Notes: generated by a model from the sequence alone, not told the origin. A DNA stretch of 43,301 nucleotides from an uncultured Bifidobacterium sp. (GCA_964632715.1 CAZWCU010000005.1:1-43301); one strand, 5' to 3'. Numbered from the stretch's first letter, positions 30,675 to 43,086 are shown. Numbers and translations are program-made.

Positions 30675-31810
30675 TGCCGGCGATCGCGAACGTCGCTGCC
30701 GGTCCGCGCACGGTCACGGTCACCTGGTCCGACGGTTCCAGACCATCGGAGTTCCATCACCTGTGGCTGCGCGACAACTGTGCCTGCGCCGCCTGCCGGC
30801 ACGTAGACACATGGGAGCGCACGCTCGACACCTACGCGGTGCCGTTCGACCTCACCGCCGGCGAGGTGTCGTCCACGGCCGACGAGCTGGTCGTCGAGTG
30901 GCCCGATGCGCACGTCAGCCGGTTCGCCGCCGAATGGCTCCACGCACATCGCGTGGGCGGCAACAGCGACCCGCTCGTGCCGATTCAGGCGCCGTGGGAT
31001 GCCTCGCTGCAGCAACGACTCCCGGAGGTGGCGTACGACGACGTGCTCGCCGGCGACATGAAGAGCAGCGACGGGTTGCGTCGGTTCGTGCGTTCCGTCT
31101 GGACTCACGGCGTCACGTTCGTGCGCGGCACGCCGGGCACGCAGGACGCGCTGCTGGCCCTGGCGAGACGGGTCGGCCACTTACGCGAGACGAACTTCGG
31201 CCTCGACTGGCACGTGGAGGCGAAGCCGCAACCGAACAACGTCGCGTACACCGCCATCGAGCTGCAGCTGCACACCGATCTCCCCAACCGGGAAGCGCCA
31301 CCGGGCATCCAGTTCCTGCACTGCCTCGCGGCCGACGCGCCCGGCGGCGACTCGACGCTGGCCGACGGCCTGTGGGTCGCCGAGCAGATCCGGCACACGC
31401 ACCCCGACGCGTTCGCGCTGCTGTCGACGGTGCCCATCGGTTACCGCTTCCACGACCGCGACCACGATCTGCGCTGGCGCGCGCCCGTCATCGGCCTCAC
31501 CGACGACAGCGCGGTGCGGGAAGTGCGGTTTCACACCGCGTTGCGCGAGCCGCTCGACGTCGCCAACGCGCTGATGGAGCCGATGCACCGCGCGCTGCAC
31601 GCGTTCGAGGAGCTGTGCCGCAGCGAGCGAGCGCGAGTGACCGTGCACCTGCAGCCCGGCGACGTGATGGTGTTCCACAACCGGCGCGTGCTGCACGGCC
31701 GCACCGCGTTCGACCCCGGCGGCGGTCGACGCTCGCTCCACGGCGCCTACGTCGACGTGGACGAATGGCTCAGCCGCATCCGCATGCTCGGTACCTCGGA
31801 GGACACATGA
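30674..31810 (+). CDS. Fe(II)/2-oxoglutarate dioxygenase of the gamma-butyrobetaine hydroxylase / TauD family, with an N-terminal DUF971 zinc domain
   Basis: The ATG shares one nt with the upstream stop (TGATG). 378 aa. The N-terminal motif LWLRDNCACAACRH is the BBOX-type Cys3His module. Iron triad: LQLHTDL (HxD) plus the distal FHNRRVLHGR. Confidence 0.8.
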   Translation: MPAIANVAAGPRTVTVTWSDGSRPSEFHHLWLRDNCACAACRHVDTWERTLDTYAVPFDLTAGEVSSTADELVVEWPDAHVSRFAAEWLHAHRVGGNSDPLVPIQAPWDASLQQRLPEVAYDDVLAGDMKSSDGLRRFVRSVWTHGVTFVRGTPGTQDALLALARRVGHLRETNFGLDWHVEAKPQPNNVAYTAIELQLHTDLPNREAPPGIQFLHCLAADAPGGDSTLADGLWVAEQIRHTHPDAFALLSTVPIGYRFHDRDHDLRWRAPVIGLTDDSAVREVRFHTALREPLDVANALMEPMHRALHAFEELCRSERARVTVHLQPGDVMVFHNRRVLHGRTAFDPGGGRRSLHGAYVDVDEWLSRIRMLGTSEDT

Positions 31811-33039
31811 ACCACGATCCAGTCGCCGCCGGCTTCGACGCGACTCGACTCGACCGCATCGCCGCACACCTGCAGCGCCACTACGTGGACCCGGGCAAGA
31901 TCGCCGGCTGCCAGGTGGCGGTCGGGCGGCGTGGGCACCTCGCGTACGCAGCCTCGCTCGGGCTGCGCCACCGCGAGCGGCAGGTGCCGATCGGCGACGA
32001 CACCATCTTCCGCATCTACTCGATGACCAAGCCGCTCACCTCCATCGCGTTGATGCAGCTGTTCGAGCAGGGCATGTTCCAGCTCGACGACCCCGTCGCC
32101 CGCTTCTTCCCCTCGTGGCGCGAGCACCGAGTGTGGGTCTCGGGCGCGGGCGACGAGATGGTCACCGAGCCCGCGCACCGGCCGGTGTCGTTCCGCGACC
32201 TGCTCTCCCACACCAGCGGGCTCACCTACGGCGGCGTGCTGCCCGGCATGGGCGACCAGCATCCGGTCGATGTGGTCTACCGCTCGCTGAAGATCCGCAG
32301 CGCGGGCGTGCAGTCGACGATGACGGAGTTCATGGAGAAGCTGGCGCATGTGCCGCTGCGCTTCCAACCCGGCACCGCGTACATGTACTCGCTGGCCACC
32401 GATGCCTGCGGCGCGCTGGTCGAGCGCATCTCCGGCGTGCCCTTCGCCGAGTACCTGCAGCAGCACATCACCGGTCCGCTCGGCATGGTCGACACGTCGT
32501 TCCAGGTGGCGCCCTCCGAGTTGCCCCGGTTCGCCGCGAACTACGCGCGCAACCCCGACAAGACCACCACCCTGCTCGACGATCCGGCCACCAGCGCGTT
32601 CACGCGGCCGCCCACGTTCGTCTCCGGTGGCGGCGGACTCACCGGCACGATGGCCGACTCACTCCGGTTCTGCGAGCTGCTGCGCCGCGGTGGCGCGCCC
32701 GACGGCCACCGCATCATCGGGCCACGCCCGCACGCACTGATTCCCATGAACCACCCGCCCGGCGGCGGCGACCTGGCGACCCACGACGTCGACCTGTTGA
32801 CGCAGTACGGCAACGTCGGCGTCGGGTTCGGCCTGGGCTTCGCCTCCACCATCGACCAGGTGGCCACCGGCGCGCTCACCCGCGGCGACTTCTACTGGGG
32901 CGGAGCCGCCTCCACCGTGTTCTGGGTCGACGCGGTCGAGGACATGTGGGTGGTGTTCATGACCCAGCTGATGCCGTCGATGTCGTTCGACTTCCGTGGT
33001 CAGCTGCGCAGCCTGGTCTACAGCGCCATCGTCGACTGA
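31807..33039 (+). CDS. Serine hydrolase, beta-lactamase / transpeptidase fold (class C / EstB-like)
   Basis: The ATG overlaps the upstream stop (ATGA). 410 aa. SxxK nucleophile motif IYSMTKPLTS. YMYSLATD region. C-terminal YWGGAASTVFWVDAVEDMWVVFMTQ is typical of the family. I see no signal peptide, so it is probably cytoplasmic. Confidence 0.85.
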   Translation: MNHDPVAAGFDATRLDRIAAHLQRHYVDPGKIAGCQVAVGRRGHLAYAASLGLRHRERQVPIGDDTIFRIYSMTKPLTSIALMQLFEQGMFQLDDPVARFFPSWREHRVWVSGAGDEMVTEPAHRPVSFRDLLSHTSGLTYGGVLPGMGDQHPVDVVYRSLKIRSAGVQSTMTEFMEKLAHVPLRFQPGTAYMYSLATDACGALVERISGVPFAEYLQQHITGPLGMVDTSFQVAPSELPRFAANYARNPDKTTTLLDDPATSAFTRPPTFVSGGGGLTGTMADSLRFCELLRRGGAPDGHRIIGPRPHALIPMNHPPGGGDLATHDVDLLTQYGNVGVGFGLGFASTIDQVATGALTRGDFYWGGAASTVFWVDAVEDMWVVFMTQLMPSMSFDFRGQLRSLVYSAIVD

Positions 33040-34556: not shown

Positions 34557-35126
34557 ATGGGCTTCCACCACGTTGCACTTGCCACCCGCGATGCCGCCGA
34601 GACGCACCGCTTCTACACCGAAGTGATGGGCTTCCACCTGGTGAAGGTGGTGGCCACGCCCACGCCTCCCAACGCCGAGGGCGTCAGCACCGGGTTCAGC
34701 AAGCACTTCTTCTACGCCACCGACGAGTCGCCCAACGGCGAGACCGGCATGATGGCGTTCTGGGAGATCCACGACCCGGCCATCGGCAGCGACTTCCCGG
34801 TCGACGTCAACGTGTCGCACGGCCTGCCGGTGTGGGTGAACCACATCGCGTTCGACGCGCCGTCGATGGACGAACTGCACCGCCACCGCGATCGCTGGCG
34901 CAGCCACGGGCACACCGTGCTCGAGGTGGACCACGAGTTCTGCGTGAGCATCTACATCACCGACCCGAGCGGCAACATGGTGGAGTTCTGTCACAGCACG
35001 CGACCGTTCACCGACGACGAGCGCGCGCACGCCGCCGCCACGGTGAGCAACCCGGCACCCGAGCTGGAGACCGACCCGCCGACGATCAGCGTGTGGAAGC
35101 CGCTCGTCGACCAACCCGTCGGCTGA
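34557..35126 (+). CDS. VOC-family (glyoxalase/dioxygenase fold) protein
   Basis: 189 aa from ATG 34557. MGFHHVALATRDAAETHRFYTEVMGFHLV and VNHIAFDAPSMDEL...ITDPSGNMVEF form two beta-alpha-beta-beta-beta modules with His/Glu metal ligands. Confidence 0.8.
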   Translation: MGFHHVALATRDAAETHRFYTEVMGFHLVKVVATPTPPNAEGVSTGFSKHFFYATDESPNGETGMMAFWEIHDPAIGSDFPVDVNVSHGLPVWVNHIAFDAPSMDELHRHRDRWRSHGHTVLEVDHEFCVSIYITDPSGNMVEFCHSTRPFTDDERAHAAATVSNPAPELETDPPTISVWKPLVDQPVG

Positions 35127-35154
35127 CCATGTCGCCGGCCGGCCGCGCCGCCCG

Positions 35155-35197
35155 CCGTTCAGTGACATGGCCGTTCAGTGACATGGCCGTTTCAGTG
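35155..35197. repeat. 16-bp perfect tandem duplication plus a partial third copy, overlapping the M56 gene stop codon
   Basis: CCGTTCAGTGACATGG occurs at 35155-35170 and again at 35171-35186. CCGTTTCAGTG follows at 35187-35197. The third copy carries the real stop of the M56 gene (TCA 35192-35194 on the plus strand). Confidence 0.8.
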
Positions 35198-36067
35198 TCG
35201 ACAGATCTCGATCAGCAGCAGGCCGAGGTGGTGCAGCTGGTACGCCGCCAGCGCCATCGTGACGGCGATGGTGCCGTAGAGCGCCGCGCGATCCGAGCGA
35301 CGCGGCGCCGCCGGTTCCGGCCCCAGCAGTGCCGCCACCCTGCCGGGCACTCCGAGACCACCCACCGCCAGCGCGCCGGCCGGCGCCACGCGCCGCAGCG
35401 CCACCTTGCCCAGCGTGCGAGCGACGAACGCTCGGTCGCCGCAGACGCGCACCGCTGACTCGTCGGCCCACCGTTCCAGCGCGAACAGCACCCGCCGCGA
35501 CAGCGGGAGCAACACCGGCACCACGCTGACCGCCAGTTCGGAGGCCAGCATGAAGCGATCATGGCGGTGACGCACGTGCGCGCGTTCGTGAGCGATCACC
35601 ACCGACTGTTCGGCGTCGTCGAGCAGTGCCAGCAGCCCGCTCGACAGCACCACCTGGCCACCACGACCGGGCACCGTGTACGCGAAAGGTGCGTCGTGCA
35701 CCACGACCTCCACGTCGCCGGCGTGGTGCGTGCAGAGCGAACGGTATGCGCGCAGCACGGCGCGCACCCTGAACAGCCCGATCACGCTGACGAGCAGCGC
35801 CGGCACGCCGAGCCAGGCCGAGATCGGTTGGTGGTGCCCGAACGGGTCGCCCCACCAGGTGACCGCGCCGCGCACCGGTGGCAGGTGTGCGACGAAGCCG
35901 GCGGCCACCAACCACACTGTCGGTGCAGCCGCGACGACCACCACCACGATCGTGACCAGCAGTGCGCGCGCGGCGAGCGCGGGCGGGAACCAGCGATGCG
36001 TGGAACCGACCACCGTGGCCAGCACCAGCGACAGCGCGAGCGGCACGAGCGCCGAGGTGACGGTCAT
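35192..36067 (-). CDS. M56-family (BlaR1-like) membrane zinc metallopeptidase without a sensor domain
   Basis: 291 aa from ATG 36067 (ATGA overlap with the repressor stop). Four or more TM helices. HExxH occurs as VVIAHERAHVRHRHD. There is no C-terminal penicillin-binding/transpeptidase-like sensor domain. Confidence 0.85.
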   Translation of the reverse strand: MTVTSALVPLALSLVLATVVGSTHRWFPPALAARALLVTIVVVVVAAAPTVWLVAAGFVAHLPPVRGAVTWWGDPFGHHQPISAWLGVPALLVSVIGLFRVRAVLRAYRSLCTHHAGDVEVVVHDAPFAYTVPGRGGQVVLSSGLLALLDDAEQSVVIAHERAHVRHRHDRFMLASELAVSVVPVLLPLSRRVLFALERWADESAVRVCGDRAFVARTLGKVALRRVAPAGALAVGGLGVPGRVAALLGPEPAAPRRSDRAALYGTIAVTMALAAYQLHHLGLLLIEICRH

Positions 36068-36420
36068 CGCGACGACTCGCCGAGCAGCGCGCGCAACGCC
36101 TTCGCTTCCTTCTTGGAGAGCGAGCCGACGAAGCCGACGAGCACTCCTGCACGATCGTTGGTGGACGACAGCACATCGGTCATCCGTTGCACCGCCCACT
36201 GCGCTTCGTCGATGGCCGCCTCGTAACCGAAAGCCCTGCCCGCCTCCAGCCGGCGGACGAGCCCCTTCGACTGCAGCCGTCCGAGCACGGTGGCAACGCT
36301 CGTGTACGCGAGTGGGTGGGGTAGCTGCTCGCGCACATCGCCCGGCGTGAGCGGCGCGGTGGCGGCCCACAACACTCGCATCACGTCGAGCTCGAGCGCT
36401 CCGTCAGCACGTTTTCCCAC
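36064..36420 (-). CDS. BlaI/MecI/CopY-family winged-helix transcriptional repressor
   Basis: 118 aa from GTG 36420, preceded by GGAGGTGGAGG. ELDVMRVLWAATAPLTPGDVREQL...YTSVATVLGRLQSKGLVRR is the family wHTH. The protein contains no cysteine. Confidence 0.85.
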   Translation of the reverse strand: MGKRADGALELDVMRVLWAATAPLTPGDVREQLPHPLAYTSVATVLGRLQSKGLVRRLEAGRAFGYEAAIDEAQWAVQRMTDVLSSTNDRAGVLVGFVGSLSKKEAKALRALLGESSR

Positions 36421-36469
36421 GCCTCCACCTCCAGGCGCACAGACTAACAACGACCACTGCACTACATTC

Positions 36470-36482
36470 CTACACGGTGTAG
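36470..36482. promoter_or_regulatory. Perfect 6-1-6 palindrome CTACAC-G-GTGTAG (candidate BlaI/CopY-type operator)
   Basis: It lies in the 91-bp divergent region, 30 nt upstream of the copCD ATG and 50 nt from the repressor GTG. It contains the TACA/TGTA dyad typical of this repressor family. An extra CTACA half-site lies just upstream (36462-36466). Confidence 0.6.
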
Positions 36483-36511
36483 TTGTCATCGGGCAGCACG
36501 CACGTTCCGCC

Positions 36512-38182
36512 ATGATCCGACGCTTTCTGCTGCTCCTCCCCGTGCTCGTCGCGGCCGCGCTCGTTCCGAGCGGCCAGGCGAACGCACACAACACGCTCAG
36601 CTCGAGCACCCCGGCCGACGGCGCAACGCTGGCGACGGCACCCACCGAGATCTCGCTGGTGTACACCGGCGCGGTGCCGCTCGAGTCGGTGTCGGTGGAA
36701 GTCATCGACTCCAGCGCCGTACGCAACGAGCTCAGCGGCTTCACACACGGGCCGAGTGGCGACACGGAGATGATGGCTGCGCTGCCGGCGCTGGCAGCCG
36801 GACCGGTGACGCTGCGGTGGCACCTGGTCGGCCCGGACGGGCACGTCATCAGCGGCCGCGTCGAGTTCACCATCGCGGCGCCCGCGGTACCGACGACCAT
36901 CGGCGCGGGCGCCACTCCCACGACGGTCGCCGCCGACGTCGCCGCGCCTGTCTCCTTCTCCGAGCCGTGGAGCACTCCGAGTGCGATCCGCTGGCTCCTG
37001 CGGGTGGCCGCCTACCTCGCAGTGCTGATGGTGGCGGGAGTAGTGCTGGCGGCCGTGTACGTCTGGCCGCCCGCGGCGACCGACGGCACCATGCGTCGGC
37101 TGCTGTGGTGGGGCCTCGCGGTGAGTGCCGCCACCGCCCTTGCGCAGTGGCTCGTCGTTGCCGGCGACCTCGCCGCGTCCGCGCCGTGGAGCGCATGGGG
37201 TTCTCTGTCCACGGCGCTGGAGACCGACGTGGGAGTGGCGATGCTGGCCCGCCTGGTCATCATCACCGCGATCGCCGCACTCCTGGCAGGCCCGGCGCGC
37301 AACGACCAGCTGAGGTGGCGTGCGATCGGCGCACTCGTGGTGTCCGCACTCGTCACCTGGGCGTGGGCCGGCCACGCGAAGTCGTTGCGGTGGCCGTGGC
37401 TCGGCGTGCCGCTCGACGTGGCACATCATCTCGCGGCCGCTGCATGGTTGGGTGGGCTGGCCGTCGTCGGCGTGTGGGCCACGCGGGTCGCCGACGAGCG
37501 CGAGGTCGCGCGCGCGGTCGATCGCTTCGGCACCGTGGCACGTGCGGCGGTGATCACGCTGGTGGTGACGGGAGCGTTGCAGAGCCTTCGCCTCGACGGT
37601 GGCCCCGGGGCGTTGTTCACCACCGGGCACGGACGGCTCGTGCTGCTGAAGGTGGTGCTGCTGGCAGTGATGCTGCTGGCGGCCGACGTGAACCGTCGAC
37701 GGGTCGCCACCCGCATCACCGCGCGCGGCTCGGTGCAGCCGAGAGCGCTCGCGAACCTGCGCCGGGCGATGCTCACCGAGCTCGCGATCGGCGTGGTCAT
37801 CATCGGCGTCACCGCCGGCCTGGTGGTGTCGACGCCGGCCAGCGCCGAGTCGGCGGGCGGGTCGAACGGCGCGCCCAGCACCACCGTGACGACCGTGCCC
37901 ACCGCCACGGTGGCGCCGACCGTCGGCACACTCCCGTCCGTGCCGCTGGACTGCACGATCGAGGCGGCCAGCGTGCAGTTCGACGACGTCGGCTACGACG
38001 TCGAGTGCCTGCAGCAGGCGTTGCGCCGCGTCGGCGTGCTGCAGTTCGGCGCGGCGACACCCGGCATCTTCGACGAGGCCACCGACGCCGCCGTGCGAGC
38101 GTTTCAGGAGCAGCAGGGGCTGCTGGTCGACGGCATCGTCGGCCGCGTCACCGCCACCGCGCTCGGGATCTGGCCGCCCTGA
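36512..38182 (+). CDS. CopC-CopD fusion copper-resistance membrane protein with a C-terminal peptidoglycan-binding domain
   Basis: 556 aa. The signal peptide ends ...GQANA, followed by HNTLSSSTPADGATL, the CopC N-terminal His. LRWHLVGPDGHVISGRVEF is typical of CopC. About 8 TM helices form the CopD part. The C-terminus LQQALRRVGVL...AVRAFQEQQGLLVDGIVGRVTATALGI matches a PG_binding_1-type domain. Confidence 0.85.
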   Translation: MIRRFLLLLPVLVAAALVPSGQANAHNTLSSSTPADGATLATAPTEISLVYTGAVPLESVSVEVIDSSAVRNELSGFTHGPSGDTEMMAALPALAAGPVTLRWHLVGPDGHVISGRVEFTIAAPAVPTTIGAGATPTTVAADVAAPVSFSEPWSTPSAIRWLLRVAAYLAVLMVAGVVLAAVYVWPPAATDGTMRRLLWWGLAVSAATALAQWLVVAGDLAASAPWSAWGSLSTALETDVGVAMLARLVIITAIAALLAGPARNDQLRWRAIGALVVSALVTWAWAGHAKSLRWPWLGVPLDVAHHLAAAAWLGGLAVVGVWATRVADEREVARAVDRFGTVARAAVITLVVTGALQSLRLDGGPGALFTTGHGRLVLLKVVLLAVMLLAADVNRRRVATRITARGSVQPRALANLRRAMLTELAIGVVIIGVTAGLVVSTPASAESAGGSNGAPSTTVTTVPTATVAPTVGTLPSVPLDCTIEAASVQFDDVGYDVECLQQALRRVGVLQFGAATPGIFDEATDAAVRAFQEQQGLLVDGIVGRVTATALGIWPP

Positions 38183-38205
38183 GCGGACATCGGAACGATC
38201 GCTCT

Positions 38206-38218
38206 CTACACTGTGTAG
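38206..38218. promoter_or_regulatory. Second copy of the palindrome, CTACAC-T-GTGTAG
   Basis: It lies 42 nt upstream of the DUF305 ATG. The two sites agree at 17 of 19 positions over CTACACNGTGTAGTNGTCA, so the similarity extends beyond the dyad. Confidence 0.6.
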
Positions 38219-38259
38219 TAGTCAGTCGTTCGTTGTGCTCGTGTTCCCGAAAGGCCCCC

Positions 38260-38865
38260 ATGTCCCGTCGCTCGCTCACCCTCGTTTCCGCACTCGCTGC
38301 TCTCGCGCTCACGGCGGGCCTGGCCGCATGCGGCGACGACTCGTCCGACGACACCCGCGACACGACGGGCACCAGCGCCGGAGCGCCGGCCGGTGCCGAG
38401 TTCGGTGATGGCGACGTGCTGTTCGCACAGAGCATGATCCCGCACCACGAACAGGCCATCGAGATGGCCGACATGGCGCTCGATCCCACCGTCGGCGCAA
38501 GTGCCGCGGTGCTCGACCTGGCGGGCCGCATCAAGGGCGCGCAGGATCCGGAGATCGAACTGATGACGGGCTGGCTCACTGCCTGGGGCATGCCGATGCA
38601 GATGGACACCAGCGATGGTCACGACATGTCGTCGATGGACGGGATGATGAGCGCCGAGGAGATGGAAGCGCTCGCCGGCAGCACCGGCGCCGAGTTCGAC
38701 CGGCTGTGGCTGGAGATGATGGTGCGCCACCACGAGGGTGCGATCGCGATGGCCGACGACGTGAAGGCCGACAGCAGCAACGCCGAGGTCATCGCGTTGG
38801 CCGACGCCATCATCGCCGGCCAGCAGGCCGAGATCGACGAGATGAAGGCGCTGCTCGACGCCTGA
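38260..38865 (+). CDS. DUF305-family secreted lipoprotein (metal/copper-associated four-helix protein)
   Basis: 201 aa. Lipobox LALTAGLAACGDD. Duplicated DUF305 signature FAQSMIPHHEQAIEMA and WLEMMVRHHEGAIAMA. A Met/His-rich loop (GMPMQMDTSDGHDMSSMDGMM) is suggestive of Cu(I) binding. Confidence 0.85.
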   Translation: MSRRSLTLVSALAALALTAGLAACGDDSSDDTRDTTGTSAGAPAGAEFGDGDVLFAQSMIPHHEQAIEMADMALDPTVGASAAVLDLAGRIKGAQDPEIELMTGWLTAWGMPMQMDTSDGHDMSSMDGMMSAEEMEALAGSTGAEFDRLWLEMMVRHHEGAIAMADDVKADSSNAEVIALADAIIAGQQAEIDEMKALLDA

Positions 38866-38875
38866 TCGCGTTCGA

Positions 38876-39682
38876 TCAGCTCGCACCCTGCAGGAACTGC
38901 ACCACCACGTCGTTGAACTCGTCGGCGTGCGTGAGCGGCGCCATGTGCCCGGCACCGTCCATGGTGTGCGTGTCCCAGTCGGGTCTCGCTGCGGCGAGCA
39001 CATCGGCGACCTCACCGAGGAGCGCGCGGGTGGCGCTGCCGCGCACCAGCAGGGTGCGTGCGCCGATGGTGGCGAAGTCGGCGGTGCTCATCGGGCCCAT
39101 CGCAGCGTCTCACTCGTAGTAGTTGGGCGCGATGGCGGCGGCCACCAGCTGCTGTCGGTGCGCGGGCGTCGCGGACCAGCTGCCGTCGCCGTTGAAGTAG
39201 TCGAAGAAGCGCTCGGCCATGCCGAGCCAGTCCTGCGCGCCACCGAAGTGCTGCACGTCGCGGTACAGCGACTCGGCCTCGCTCCACGCGGCGCCTCCGC
39301 TGCCGCGCAACAGTCCGGGCAGCATCGGTTCGTGGACGACGAGATCGGTGACGCGATCGCCGAGCGTGGCAGCGGCCGCCATCAGCGCGCTGGCTCCCCA
39401 CGAATGGCCGACCGCCGTCACCGGTTCGTCGACCGACGCGCACACGGCCAACAGCACGGCCGCGGCATCGGCGATGGTGAACGGCCGGTCGCCGGGCCAG
39501 GCGGTGGTGGAGCCGTAGCCATGCAGGTTGGGGGCGATCACCCGATGGTGCTCTTGCAGGCGTGCCACCAGTGCACGCCACTGACGGTTGCCGCTCGCCG
39601 AGCTGTGCGAGAGCACCACGGTGGGGCCGGCTCCCTCGTCGATGCACTCCACCGCCAGTCCGTGATGTTCGATGATGCGCAT
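38876..39682 (-). pseudogene. Alpha/beta-fold hydrolase interrupted by one in-frame TGA (nt 39110-39112, codon 191)
   Basis: The N-terminal part (39113-39682) has the oxyanion region VVLSHSS and the nucleophile elbow GHSWGA. The C-terminal part (38876-39109) has the strand TLLVRGS and the catalytic His region GAGHMAPLTH. Both parts are in the same reading frame and are separated only by TGA. The total of 268 codons is the normal size for the fold. Confidence 0.7.
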
Positions 39683-40747: not shown

Positions 40748-41239
40748 GTGAGATCGGTGTCGGACGTGACGGACGAAGGGGTGAGCACGTCGTCGTTCGC
40801 CGGCTTCTACGAGTCGCACCGAGAAGGGGCGATACGACTGGCGTGGCTGTTGACCCACGACCCAGCCGCCGCCGAGGACGTGGTGCACGACGCGTTCACC
40901 GCGCTGTTCCATCGCTTCGAGTCCGTCGACAACCACGCCGCCTACCTGCGCCGGTCGGTCGTCAACGCCGTCTACGAACGCACTCGCCGCTCCGGCAGAG
41001 AGACCCGCCGCATGGCACTCGTCGCGACGACTGAGCCCGTCGAGGTCGACGGTCCGACTGGTGGTCTGATCGACGCGATCGCTCGTCTGCCGCTGCAACA
41101 ACGGACCGTGATCGTGCTGCGGTACTGGAGCGATCTCGACCATGCCGCCATCGCCGACGCGATGGACACCCGGGTCGGCACCGTGCGCTCGCTGCTCAGC
41201 CGAGCGACCGCCCAACTACGAACGGAGATCCAGCCATGA
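40748..41239 (+). CDS. ECF-type RNA polymerase sigma-70 family factor
   Basis: GTG 40748 has GGAG 6 nt upstream. Region 2 is AAEDVVHDAFTALFHRF...YLRRSVVNAV. Region 4 is LPLQQRTVIVLRYWSDLDHAAIADAMDTRVGTVRSLLSRATAQLR. Confidence 0.85.
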   Translation: MRSVSDVTDEGVSTSSFAGFYESHREGAIRLAWLLTHDPAAAEDVVHDAFTALFHRFESVDNHAAYLRRSVVNAVYERTRRSGRETRRMALVATTEPVEVDGPTGGLIDAIARLPLQQRTVIVLRYWSDLDHAAIADAMDTRVGTVRSLLSRATAQLRTEIQP

Positions 41240-43086
41240 ACGATCTGCTCGACCGCCAGTTCGAGGACGCGATCCGAGGAGCGCTCACCGACGATGCCCG
41301 GCGCGCGCCGCACGCGCCGAGGTGGTGGGGACCGATCGCCGCCATGACGCCACCCCCACGCGTGCGATGGGTCGCGGTTGCCGCATCGGTGTTGGTGATC
41401 GCCGTCGTGGGGGCCGTTGCGGCCCTGGCGACGCGCACGGACGACACACCGACGATCAACGGCACGCCCTCGACCACAACGTTCAGGGAACCCGCGATCG
41501 TCGACCAGTGGGTGCCATCTCCCGCCCCGACGATCACCGCTCGGTCGGGCTTCGTGTCGGTGTCGACTGGCACTGGTTGGTTCGTGTGGGGAGGCTGGAG
41601 CCGCGAGGGCGATACGGATCCCGAGGCGAGCATGGACGACGGCGCCTACTTCGACGGATCCACCGGCGAATGGAAGACGCTGCCGGATGCCCCGATCGCC
41701 AACGAATTCCAGGCGGCATATGGGCTCTGGACGGGGAGCGAGGTGATCGTGGTCGTCGCAGGGAGCGAGCCCCTCATCACCGCGTTCGACCCGGCCACGT
41801 TCCGGTGGCGGGCGATCCCCGTCCCGGACGAAATGCGCTCCGAATGGCCACGGACCGACGGCCGGTACGCCCGAGGGTGGCATCGCTTCATCGCGGGCAA
41901 GTTGGTCATGTACTTCCCCACGAGCTCGGACGGTGGGCCCGCGCTGCTCGTGTTCGACCCGTCGAACGGTCAATGGACGACGGGAGCGGCGCCACCGACG
42001 ACCAACGACGATCTCGTTCTCGGCCTGGCCGCATCGTCGGACGAGCTGTTCGTCCTGGGCGCCGGCCAACGCAACAGCGACTCCGCCTGCCTCGGGAGCA
42101 CCCCGCTGCACACCTACGACCTCGCCACCGACACGTGGGCGTCACGTGACATCCCTCACGGCAACTGGCAACCCGCAGTCGTGGCCTGGACCGGCGACTC
42201 TCTGCTGTTGGCGGGAGGGCGCGACTGCGGATCCGAGGAGGCGGTGCGAACGAGCGCCATCCTCGACCCAGAGTTGCAGACCTGGACCGACGTGGCCGAC
42301 GTCACCGACGACCTCCCTTACGTCATCACCGAACCATTGGTTGCTGGTCCGAGGGTGGTCGCTGTCGGCGAGTCAGGTCGGCCGGCCAGCTACTCCGTCG
42401 AGCTGCGGGCGTGGTGGTCCGGGCCTGCACTGTGGCCCGACCGAACCATCGGCGACCTGTCGATTGCGGTGATCGGCGACCGTCTCGTCACGTGGAGCGC
42501 AAGTCCGTGGGAGAGCGAAGATGGCGTGTGGAGCTGCTGTCAGCCGAACCCAGCCGCGTTCGCACTGCAGCTCCCAGACGCCAGCCGGGTGACCGGGCCG
42601 CCCGCGACGGTGAGCACCGCCACGACGGTGACGCTCGTCGAGTCCGGCATCTGCATCGATGGCTCCTACATCCTGCAGGAAGGTGACACGCCCCACGATC
42701 TTGCCGTCAAGTTCGACCTCTCGGTGGAAGCCCTCGCCTTCGCCAACGTCGGCACTCCCGGCTACGACGCGTTCATCGTGGGCACACGAGTATTGATTCC
42801 AACCGCTGGCCCCGGCTGCCAGATGGCGCCGAACGGCGACGGTGCAGCCATCGTGGTTACCATGCCGCCCGACTCCACCGACGCCCAGATCGCGCTCGTG
42901 CGCGCCGTGCTCGACGACCTCGGTGCGCCCATCGACGCCACGCGGACCGAGTTCCGGGCAGGTGGCGACGCAGCCGTGTTCTTCGTCTTCGCCGATCCCG
43001 CGGCCGACCCGACGACGCTCTACAGCATCGCCGAGGAGCTCCGACACCTGCCCGGCGTCGCCGGGGTGACCCGGCCGATGAACTGA
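41236..43086 (+). CDS. Single-pass membrane protein with an extracytoplasmic Kelch-type beta-propeller, a LysM domain and a C-terminal alpha/beta domain (candidate anti-sigma factor)
   Basis: The ATG overlaps the sigma stop (ATGA). There is a ~45-aa cytoplasmic segment, then a TM helix (VAVAASVLVIAVVGAVAALA). Five recurring Kelch-like blades carry the motifs YFDGSTGEW, AFDPATFRW, VFDPSNGQW, TYDLATDTW and ILDPELQTW, each preceded by a GG/AG strand. LysM is at nt 42667-42801 (YILQEGDTPHDLAVKFDLSVEALAFANV...VGTRVLIP). Confidence 0.75.
   Translation: MNDLLDRQFEDAIRGALTDDARRAPHAPRWWGPIAAMTPPPRVRWVAVAASVLVIAVVGAVAALATRTDDTPTINGTPSTTTFREPAIVDQWVPSPAPTITARSGFVSVSTGTGWFVWGGWSREGDTDPEASMDDGAYFDGSTGEWKTLPDAPIANEFQAAYGLWTGSEVIVVVAGSEPLITAFDPATFRWRAIPVPDEMRSEWPRTDGRYARGWHRFIAGKLVMYFPTSSDGGPALLVFDPSNGQWTTGAAPPTTNDDLVLGLAASSDELFVLGAGQRNSDSACLGSTPLHTYDLATDTWASRDIPHGNWQPAVVAWTGDSLLLAGGRDCGSEEAVRTSAILDPELQTWTDVADVTDDLPYVITEPLVAGPRVVAVGESGRPASYSVELRAWWSGPALWPDRTIGDLSIAVIGDRLVTWSASPWESEDGVWSCCQPNPAAFALQLPDASRVTGPPATVSTATTVTLVESGICIDGSYILQEGDTPHDLAVKFDLSVEALAFANVGTPGYDAFIVGTRVLIPTAGPGCQMAPNGDGAAIVVTMPPDSTDAQIALVRAVLDDLGAPIDATRTEFRAGGDAAVFFVFADPAADPTTLYSIAEELRHLPGVAGVTRPMN

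Follow-up and report, generated by a model that had tools for sequence, protein, structure and literature searches.

The question raised by this locus is what a repressor of the BlaI/MecI/CopY family controls, and which signal it obeys, when its partner protease carries no penicillin-binding sensor domain and the divergent genes encode copper-binding proteins of the envelope. The locus lies in a stretch of 43,301 nt from an uncultured Bifidobacterium sp. (GCA_964632715.1 CAZWCU010000005.1:1-43301), here called the window, of which positions 35000-39200 were read closely together with a list of open reading frames. It consists of four genes: the repressor (blaI) and protease genes on the minus strand and, divergent from this pair, copCD and a DUF305 lipoprotein gene on the plus strand. 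An earlier note on this DNA had proposed that a BlaR1-like signalling pair may control an envelope copper regulon. We found strong in-silico evidence that the BlaI homologue would, through a conserved dyad, regulate its own gene and a copper-centred envelope regulon, and we consider it probable that the pair is a BlaI/BlaR1-type proteolytic switch recruited to envelope copper handling.

Predicted operators and conserved gene neighbourhood

The repressor gene starts with GTG behind the Shine-Dalgarno sequence GGAGGTGGAGG, and its stop codon shares the tetranucleotide ATGA with the start codon of the 291-aa protease gene, an overlap that the earlier note had already described for the BlaI-family gene at 36064-36420. 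The divergent blaI/copCD intergenic region measures 91 bp and the copCD-DUF305 spacer 77 bp, and each contains a perfect 13-bp palindrome, CTACACGGTGTAG at 36470-36482 and CTACACTGTGTAG at 38206-38218. The 43.3 kb contain no other exact match to CTACACNGTGTAG, and none occurred in 100 shuffles. The twin palindromes claimed for the regions before copCD and DUF305, and their agreement over 19 nt (17/19), were both confirmed, while the distances to the start codons needed correction to 29 nt for copCD (30 claimed; the start is at 36512, not 36513) and 41 nt for DUF305 (42 claimed; start at 38260). When one mismatch to CTACA-N3-TGTAG was allowed, just two more matches appeared in the window, both imperfect and neither near the locus.

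A scan of 185,579 species genomes gave 80 loci, 72 from Acidimicrobiia-like metagenome-assembled genomes (MAGs) and 8 from Streptomyces, and the window's four proteins as well as TlpA-like redoxin, CcdA, multicopper oxidase (MCO) and P1B ATPase were mapped back onto all of them; the annotations of redoxin, DsbD_TM, MCO and HMA-bearing P-type ATPase were confirmed by Pfam. As in BlaR1/MecR1 systems, the protease gene followed blaI directly in 69 of the 72 Acidimicrobiia loci. CopCD or DUF305 was encoded in 60 of these, and at least one copper-related gene (CopCD, DUF305, TlpA/CcdA, MCO or P1B-ATPase) in 69, while the eight Streptomyces loci had none of this copper-gene arrangement. The commonest full arrangement was DUF305 <- copCD <- operator -> blaI -> protease -> operator -> tlpA -> ccdA -> MCO, with a copA-type ATPase gene following DUF305 in some loci; the window holds only its left half. 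Five distant protease representatives were also looked up. One contig was too short, and in the four informative ones BlaI adjoined the protease, with CopCD and DUF305, DUF305, an HMA chaperone, or HMA, DUF305 and DsbD_TM nearby; the dyad stood before blaI in one of the distant representatives.

The 844 kb of loci contained 117 TACA-N3-TGTA sites, 104 of them within 200 nt upstream of blaI (55), DUF305 (42), copCD (34), tlpA (23) or MCO (2), divergent promoters being counted twice. Several of the other 13 lay at contig ends that cut off tlpA, and others preceded YkuD L,D-transpeptidase or LysM-NlpC/P60 hydrolase genes. With the copper linkage (69/72), the dyads before blaI, copCD, DUF305, TlpA-like redoxin and MCO genes support the regulon put forward in the earlier note, and synteny and dyad co-occur in related genomes, the comparative test that it had suggested.

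Based on the information content along the aligned sites, the operator consensus is a 15-bp dyad, ACTACA-N3-TGTAGT. Only this dyad, a TANNNT hexamer on the copCD side and the Shine-Dalgarno sequence were conserved in the upstream regions. In most loci a fixed distance of about 60 nt separates the dyad from the blaI start, and the distance to the copCD start is about 42 nt; on the blaI side a TAG(N)CT hexamer (TAGTCT in the window) follows about 22 nt past the dyad. Before DUF305, CTACACTGTGTAGTAG was conserved in 42 cases at a median of 38 nt from the start codon, and here the dyad centre itself is conserved (TACACT) and could act as the DUF305 -10 element. A strict sigma-70 promoter scan gave no matches, and the -10 elements were predicted instead from conservation across loci; the positions of the elements would fit repression by promoter occlusion. 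Inverted TACA/TGTA repeats, the predicted operators, stand before the repressor's own gene as well as before its predicted targets. Their half-sites match the core that the earlier note had named for BlaI, MecI and CopY, but their spacing does not, being TACA-N3-TGTA instead of the classical TACA-N2-TGTA.

We also scanned metagenomes for CTACACNGTGTAGTNG and obtained at least 120 matches. Among the matches listed, most were in low-GC contigs without related genes, three were in orthologous loci and about five were beside distant BlaI/M56 pairs; we regard them as mostly chance matches in so large a collection and as no measure of specificity.

It could be argued that the palindromes are bound by another copper regulator, of the CsoR/RicR or two-component type, and that the BlaI pair nearby has nothing to do with them. 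Copper regulation in Actinobacteria usually rests with CsoR/RicR and two-component systems, and a histidine kinase was seen in one related locus. However, in the loci inspected, without a systematic screen, no other regulator gene recurred beside the pair, the site precedes blaI itself at a fixed distance in 55 cases, and the same dyad type adjoins distant BlaI/M56 pairs among the metagenome matches listed. As the half-sites are, moreover, of the BlaI/MecI/CopY type (PMC7253601), we find such a regulator hardly credible.

Some operators deviate from the consensus. The variant ACTACG-N3-TGTCGT was found about 60 nt before blaI in L044, L045 and L048, whose pairs adjoin P-type ATPase genes, and ACTACACCATGTCGG variants with TGTCG halves occurred in L019, L020 and L026; the recognition helix of the repressor is unchanged in both groups. 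In the window, an extra ACTACA half-site at 36462-36467, 2 nt before the operator O1 (ACTACAttCCTACACGGTGTAGT), overlaps the predicted copCD -10 element and is shared only with L001, the window's 93%-identical relative. Among the metagenome matches listed, the exact dyad CTACAC-N-GTGTAG also lay next to BlaI-like genes that are only very distantly related (profile E 1e-9 to 1e-12; L131:3943, L192:528, L163:704). Some contigs of this type are low-GC, and in at least one case, L163, an M56-like partner is present; use of this operator type may thus extend further within the family. The MAG that holds L001 contains a second, 62%-identical BlaI-protease pair (L032:453-14340) together with CopA, operator, TlpA, CcdA and MCO. 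The recognition helix is identical and the operator core is the same, and its protease keeps C72, which is W72 in the window. This suggests two paralogous switches with shared operators and different proteases.

The repressor

The repressor matched Pfam Penicillinase_R over residues 7-113 with 82.5 bits (cut-off 22.6), which corresponds to the full-length domain. It has hundreds of homologues of 118 aa with 60-80% identity, the named ones coming from Ilumatobacteraceae or Actinomycetota MAGs. M. tuberculosis BlaI (2g9w) was its nearest solved relative (E 1e-9; 1.5e-14 with a profile), and in the search with a profile of 43 orthologues MecI and S. aureus BlaI structures came next. The recognition helix LAYTSVATVL was invariant among the 43 orthologues. 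When helix and operator were compared for covariation, both proved nearly invariant, in part owing to the use of this peptide as search seed; this fits the model but, given the seed, does not test it independently.

The window repressor contains no cysteine, and no cysteine was conserved in the alignment of 43 orthologues. The CxC motif of the C-terminal CopY metal site is absent from it, and its match to NCBIfam TIGR02698 (CopY_TcrY) reached 34.3 bits against a cut-off of 121.95. CopY-type direct metal sensing was rejected on these grounds, as the earlier note had argued from the missing cysteines. The alignment did not reveal conserved ligand-type residues of any other kind in the repressor.

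The family segment 'vlaGFvg' aligned on 'lvlNFve/ak' of MecI/BlaI, which places G96-F97 of the repressor on N101-F102 of S. aureus BlaI/MecI. We take N101|F102 to be the bond that is cut in BlaR1/MecR1 signalling. F97, which is invariant among the 43 orthologues, thus corresponds to the P1' Phe of the scissile bond. Homology and the retained F97 suggest that the repressor would be cleaved by the protease.

The protease and its outward-facing residues

The protease has HERAH at residues 160-164, and among 62 homologues H160, E161 and H164 (HEXXH) as well as E198 and D202 (EXXXD) were invariant; both motifs are cited as BlaR1 motifs in a P. aeruginosa preprint. A confident AlphaFold2 model (pLDDT 86, pTM 0.84) consists of transmembrane helices TM1 (3-22) and TM2 (29-60), an outer loop (61-83), TM3 (84-111), the catalytic domain and TM4 (257-290). 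By the positive-inside rule the modelled topology is BlaR1-type, with the catalytic domain predicted to be cytoplasmic, and with such a topology only the loop 61-83 and the last residues would face outward. Four membrane helices and a gluzincin domain with HEXXH/EXXXD, the BlaR1/MecR1 architecture, are found in model and alignment together. A penicillin-binding (transpeptidase-like) domain is absent: the chain stops at residue 291 right after TM4, and Pfam gave no such match. Sequence, Pfam and model agree here with the earlier claim of a HERAH protease without penicillin-binding sensor.

The family label is less straightforward. Orthologues carry the NCBI name 'M56 family metallopeptidase', but the best NCBIfam and Pfam matches were M48/HtpX, with Peptidase_M48 at 53 bits and Peptidase_M56 at only 15.7 bits against a cut-off of 31, so that the 'M56' label of the earlier note is weakly backed by Pfam. 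When the model was compared with the Protein Data Bank (PDB) by Foldseek, BepA and ZMPSTE24 came slightly ahead of BlaR1 (8exq, E=0.5), all at E>0.1, so that M48 and M56 could not be separated and no clear BlaR1 fold match was obtained. The sequence search against the PDB returned nothing significant.

The M48/HtpX top matches and the Foldseek order speak for a general HtpX/M48-like membrane quality-control protease that shares the operon while the repressor is under another ligand or partner. We consider this very unlikely. The protease adjoins the repressor in 69/72 loci and their genes overlap in the window, the protease has the EXXXD motif and predicted topology of BlaR1, the repressor keeps the Phe of the cleavage site and is devoid of conserved ligand-type residues, and a BlaI homologue is encoded close to about 96% of M56 proteins (PMC13081940). 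The placement of the dyad before blaI itself and the tight coupling of the genes make both this explanation and the other-regulator explanation unlikely; the data support the protease as the predicted dedicated partner of the repressor.

Conservation in the outward-facing parts was high. W71 of the outer loop is invariant, C72 is conserved in at least 90% and H79 in about 78%, and in TM4 Q277 and C289 are invariant and H279/H280 conserved in at least 90%. The candidate extracytoplasmic ligands are H61, W71, C72 (in most members) and H79 in the loop and QxH279H280x8C289 at the outer end of TM4. WC...H together with QxHHx8C forms a clade signature, which is kept in copper-linked orthologues down to about 30% identity and was not found in Streptomyces or the other M56 outgroups compared. 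A hidden Markov model search of 1.84 billion representatives gave 460 clusters at E<=1e-30, nearly all about 290 aa long. HH and C were present in 109-114 of the 127 full-length representatives, C72 in 105 and H79 in 92. Neither H78 nor the terminal H291 of the window protease is conserved in the family, whereas H79, H279, H280 and C289 are. All the His-rich segments proposed in the earlier note as signal inputs are present, and conservation and topology back the outer loop and the C-terminal HH...C; HERAHVRHRHD belongs to the predicted cytoplasmic catalytic region and is unlikely to be a sensor.

We tentatively propose, with more doubt than confidence, that the protease itself is the copper sensor, the His and Cys residues of its outer face (WC...H loop, QxHHx8C in TM4) binding copper and triggering cleavage of the repressor. 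The same circuit could instead sense envelope thiol or cell-wall damage, through oxidation of the cysteine pair C72 (loop) and C289 (C-terminus) or through a peptidoglycan defect, with copper as one upstream cause among several. Two conserved extracytoplasmic cysteines are available for this, TlpA-like redoxin and CcdA are among the regulon members, operator-like sites precede YkuD L,D-transpeptidase and LysM-NlpC/P60 hydrolase genes, CopCD carries PG_binding_1, and the CenIR regulon of C. difficile likewise holds cell-wall enzymes (PMC13081940). However, the window protease has W for C72 and the system is kept, three conserved histidines stand alongside the cysteines, and the core and most frequent targets are copper-binding proteins. 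We regard damage sensing of this kind as unlikely.

The proposed switch and its regulon

In the proposed switch, a Cys-free BlaI-like dimer would bind the 15-bp ACTACA-N3-TGTAGT operators. O1, between copCD and the divergent blaI-protease operon, would overlap the -10/start region of copCD and the -35 region of blaI and, through this overlap of both promoter regions, repress copCD and blaI, while O2 would overlap the promoter of the DUF305/CopM lipoprotein gene. The co-translated four-helix zinc protease would expose to the outside only the TM2-TM3 loop and the outer end of TM4, where the signal would most likely be envelope copper or copper-caused damage. On this signal the cytoplasmic gluzincin domain would cut the repressor near G96-F97, the dimer would be broken and the regulon derepressed. 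In the window this regulon would comprise the CopC-CopD-PG_binding_1 protein and DUF305, and in relatives also TlpA-like redoxin with CcdA, MCO and P1B-type ATPases. Homology, the regulon content and the conserved residues point to copper, or envelope damage caused by it, as the probable signal.

The copCD product matched CopC with 64 bits, CopD with 66 bits and PG_binding_1 with 54 bits in Pfam, and its NCBIfam CopD and CopC matches were sub-threshold. Its signal peptide ends in ANA|H, so that the predicted mature protein begins with His. The DUF305 gene is preceded by the Shine-Dalgarno sequence GAAAGG, and its product has the lipobox LAAC at residues 21-24 and a Pfam DUF305 match of 160 bits; the NCBIfam match to CopM family metallochaperone (84 bits) is slightly below the cut-off of 90.

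The presence of both CopCD and TlpA genes in the regulon raises the possibility of an opposite signal, copper shortage or cuproenzyme maturation, upon which the repressor would be removed for CopCD/YcnJ-like uptake and delivery to envelope cuproproteins (TlpA/CcdA, ATPase, MCO). Copper uptake and limitation are associated with CopC-CopD fusions, B. subtilis YcnJ among them, and TlpA with CcdA is a known route by which CuA sites are prepared. Against this, HMA-bearing and His-rich P1B ATPases, MCO and CopM-like DUF305 typically belong to the response to copper excess, CopM being copper-induced and protective in Synechocystis (PMC4335983), and an irreversible proteolytic switch fits a stress response better than homeostatic uptake. 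We judge a shortage signal to be decidedly improbable.

Several points weigh against a proteolytic switch for envelope copper. The loci were gathered through BlaI homology, and the specificity of the dyad was gauged in and around these clusters only. Degenerate or variant operators occur in some loci. The fold-level assignment of the protease is weak, with the M56 Pfam score under threshold and Foldseek E>0.1, and the window protease, which also has an additional H78, carries W in place of the otherwise conserved C72. That the repressor binds the dyads and is cleaved, and what the signal is and which way it acts, are deduced from sequence. Finally, the regulon mixes copper-excess genes (MCO, ATPase, CopM) with supply and thiol genes (CopCD, TlpA/CcdA), which leaves the sign of the signal uncertain.

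Comparison with known systems

The BlaI-BlaR1 and MecI-MecR1 systems of S. aureus and B. licheniformis likewise combine a repressor with a co-transcribed four-helix zinc protease (HEXXH, EXXXD), autoregulatory inverted repeats with TACA/TGTA half-sites and a Phe at the N101|F102 scissile-bond position. Unlike these, the pair described here has no penicillin-binding sensor, copper genes instead of beta-lactamase or PBP2a as predicted targets, a half-site spacing of 3 nt instead of 2, Gly for Asn at P1 and an M56 Pfam score under threshold. Truncated BlaR homologues without transpeptidase domain are known from the BlaIR pairs of M. tuberculosis (Rv1846c/Rv1845c) and M. abscessus, C. difficile CenIR and P. 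aeruginosa PvmSR, and the M. tuberculosis BlaI is also the nearest solved relative of the window repressor. The sensor-less class is common, as about 6% of M56 proteins carry the transpeptidase sensor domain (PMC13081940). The targets of these examples are ATP synthase/energy metabolism, cell-envelope genes or virulence, with no copper link, whereas the present clade has a coherent predicted copper regulon and a clade-specific His/Cys signature that hints at the signal.

CopY/CopR of Firmicutes belong to the same protein family, with TACA/TGTA half-sites and copper homeostasis as output (PMC7253601, PMC11672702), but CopY senses Cu(I) directly by a C-terminal CxCx4CxC motif (PMC11672702, PMC7253601) and has no partner protease, and the repressor described here has no Cys. 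Actinobacterial CsoR/RicR and CopRS-type systems share the output of MCO, P1B ATPase and copper-binding envelope proteins; they differ in their unrelated fold and in acting by reversible cytoplasmic Cu(I) binding or a phosphorelay, where here irreversible proteolysis is predicted. In the searchable literature library, full-text searches gave no paper that links BlaI/BlaR-type pairs to copper genes.

Most BlaR-like proteases are without penicillin sensor, and for this clade a signal can be predicted, the first for this widespread sensor-less class: copper, or envelope damage that copper causes. Candidate ligands, an operator and a regulon come with it. If true, regulated proteolysis of a repressor would join CueR/CsoR/CopY allostery and two-component systems as a fourth principle of copper sensing in bacteria, and would give a reason why CopY and BlaI share fold and operator type. 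If the protease is indeed the copper sensor, this would be a proteolytic, non-allosteric way of metal sensing and a bridge between CopY and BlaI/BlaR1 in a family of hundreds of sequence clusters. The switch would also provide a first model of how copper handling is regulated in Ilumatobacteraceae and other Acidimicrobiia, bacteria that abound in soil and in fresh and sea water and have received little experimental work.

Feature coordinates and neighbouring genes

Table 1. Positions of genes and predicted regulatory elements of the locus, numbered from the first nucleotide of the window.
Feature	Position	Strand	Basis or remark
Repressor, 118 aa, BlaI/MecI/CopY-family winged-helix, Cys-free	36064..36420	-	Pfam PF03965
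Putative BlaR1-like membrane zinc metalloprotease, 291 aa, no sensor domain	35192..36067	-	Pfam M48, AlphaFold2 model
CopC-CopD fusion, 556 aa, C-terminal PG_binding_1 domain	36512..38182	+	Pfam
DUF305 (CopM-like) lipoprotein, 201 aa	38260..38865	+	Pfam DUF305
Predicted operator O1, CCTACACGGTGTAGT (reads ACTACACCGTGTAGG towards blaI)	36469..36483		blaI/copCD intergenic, conserved in relatives
Predicted operator O2, TCTACACTGTGTAGT	38205..38219		copCD-DUF305 spacer; embedded TACACT is a possible -10
Predicted blaI -10, TAGTCT	36441..36446	-	TAG(N)CT/TACGCT conserved in orthologous loci, equally far from the start codon
Predicted copCD -10, TACATT, abuts O1	36463..36468	+	TANNNT (mostly TAGACT) conserved 2 nt before the TACA core in 34 copCD-oriented sites
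Shine-Dalgarno of repressor gene, GGAGGTGGAGG	36422..36432	-	Read from sequence; GGAGG at the same place in orthologous loci

Control of a beta-lactamase by the pair was considered and rejected. The window contains a gene for a serine hydrolase of the PF00144 'Beta-lactamase' family at 31807-33039 (plus strand, 204 bits), 3 kb away from the BlaI pair. This gene is without an operator, and of the 80 loci L001 alone shares it; its proximity was judged to be coincidental.

Operator-type dyads were found just upstream of genes for a PG_binding_1+YkuD L,D-transpeptidase and a LysM-NlpC/P60 hydrolase (L017:3147, L047:6236, L022:6238). These dyads and the PG_binding_1 domain fused to CopCD hint that peptidoglycan remodelling may be part of the regulon.

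Between the stop codon of a glyoxalase-family gene and that of the protease gene there is a 16-nt tandem repeat, GCCGTTCAGTGACATG, at 35154-35197 (2.7 copies, 96% match), which overlaps the last codons of the protease; in many relatives a third operator and the tlpA gene stand at this position. Beyond the DUF305 gene, an alpha/beta-hydrolase gene (38869-39680, minus strand) is broken by one in-frame TGA at 39110-39112 (...APNYYE*DAAMGPMSTADF...). With Trp in place of this TGA, the 268-aa product gave a single Abhydrolase_6 match over residues 22-258. The TGA could reflect a pseudogene (TGG->TGA) or an assembly error; L001 has no stretch homologous to this gene with which it could be compared. 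Further along the plus strand, at 40748-43086, an extracytoplasmic function (ECF)-type sigma factor gene (Sigma70_r2/r4) shares an ATGA overlap with a second gene. The 616-aa product of the latter has one predicted membrane segment and Kelch-repeat matches that are weak and below threshold, and it is possibly the anti-sigma partner of the ECF factor.

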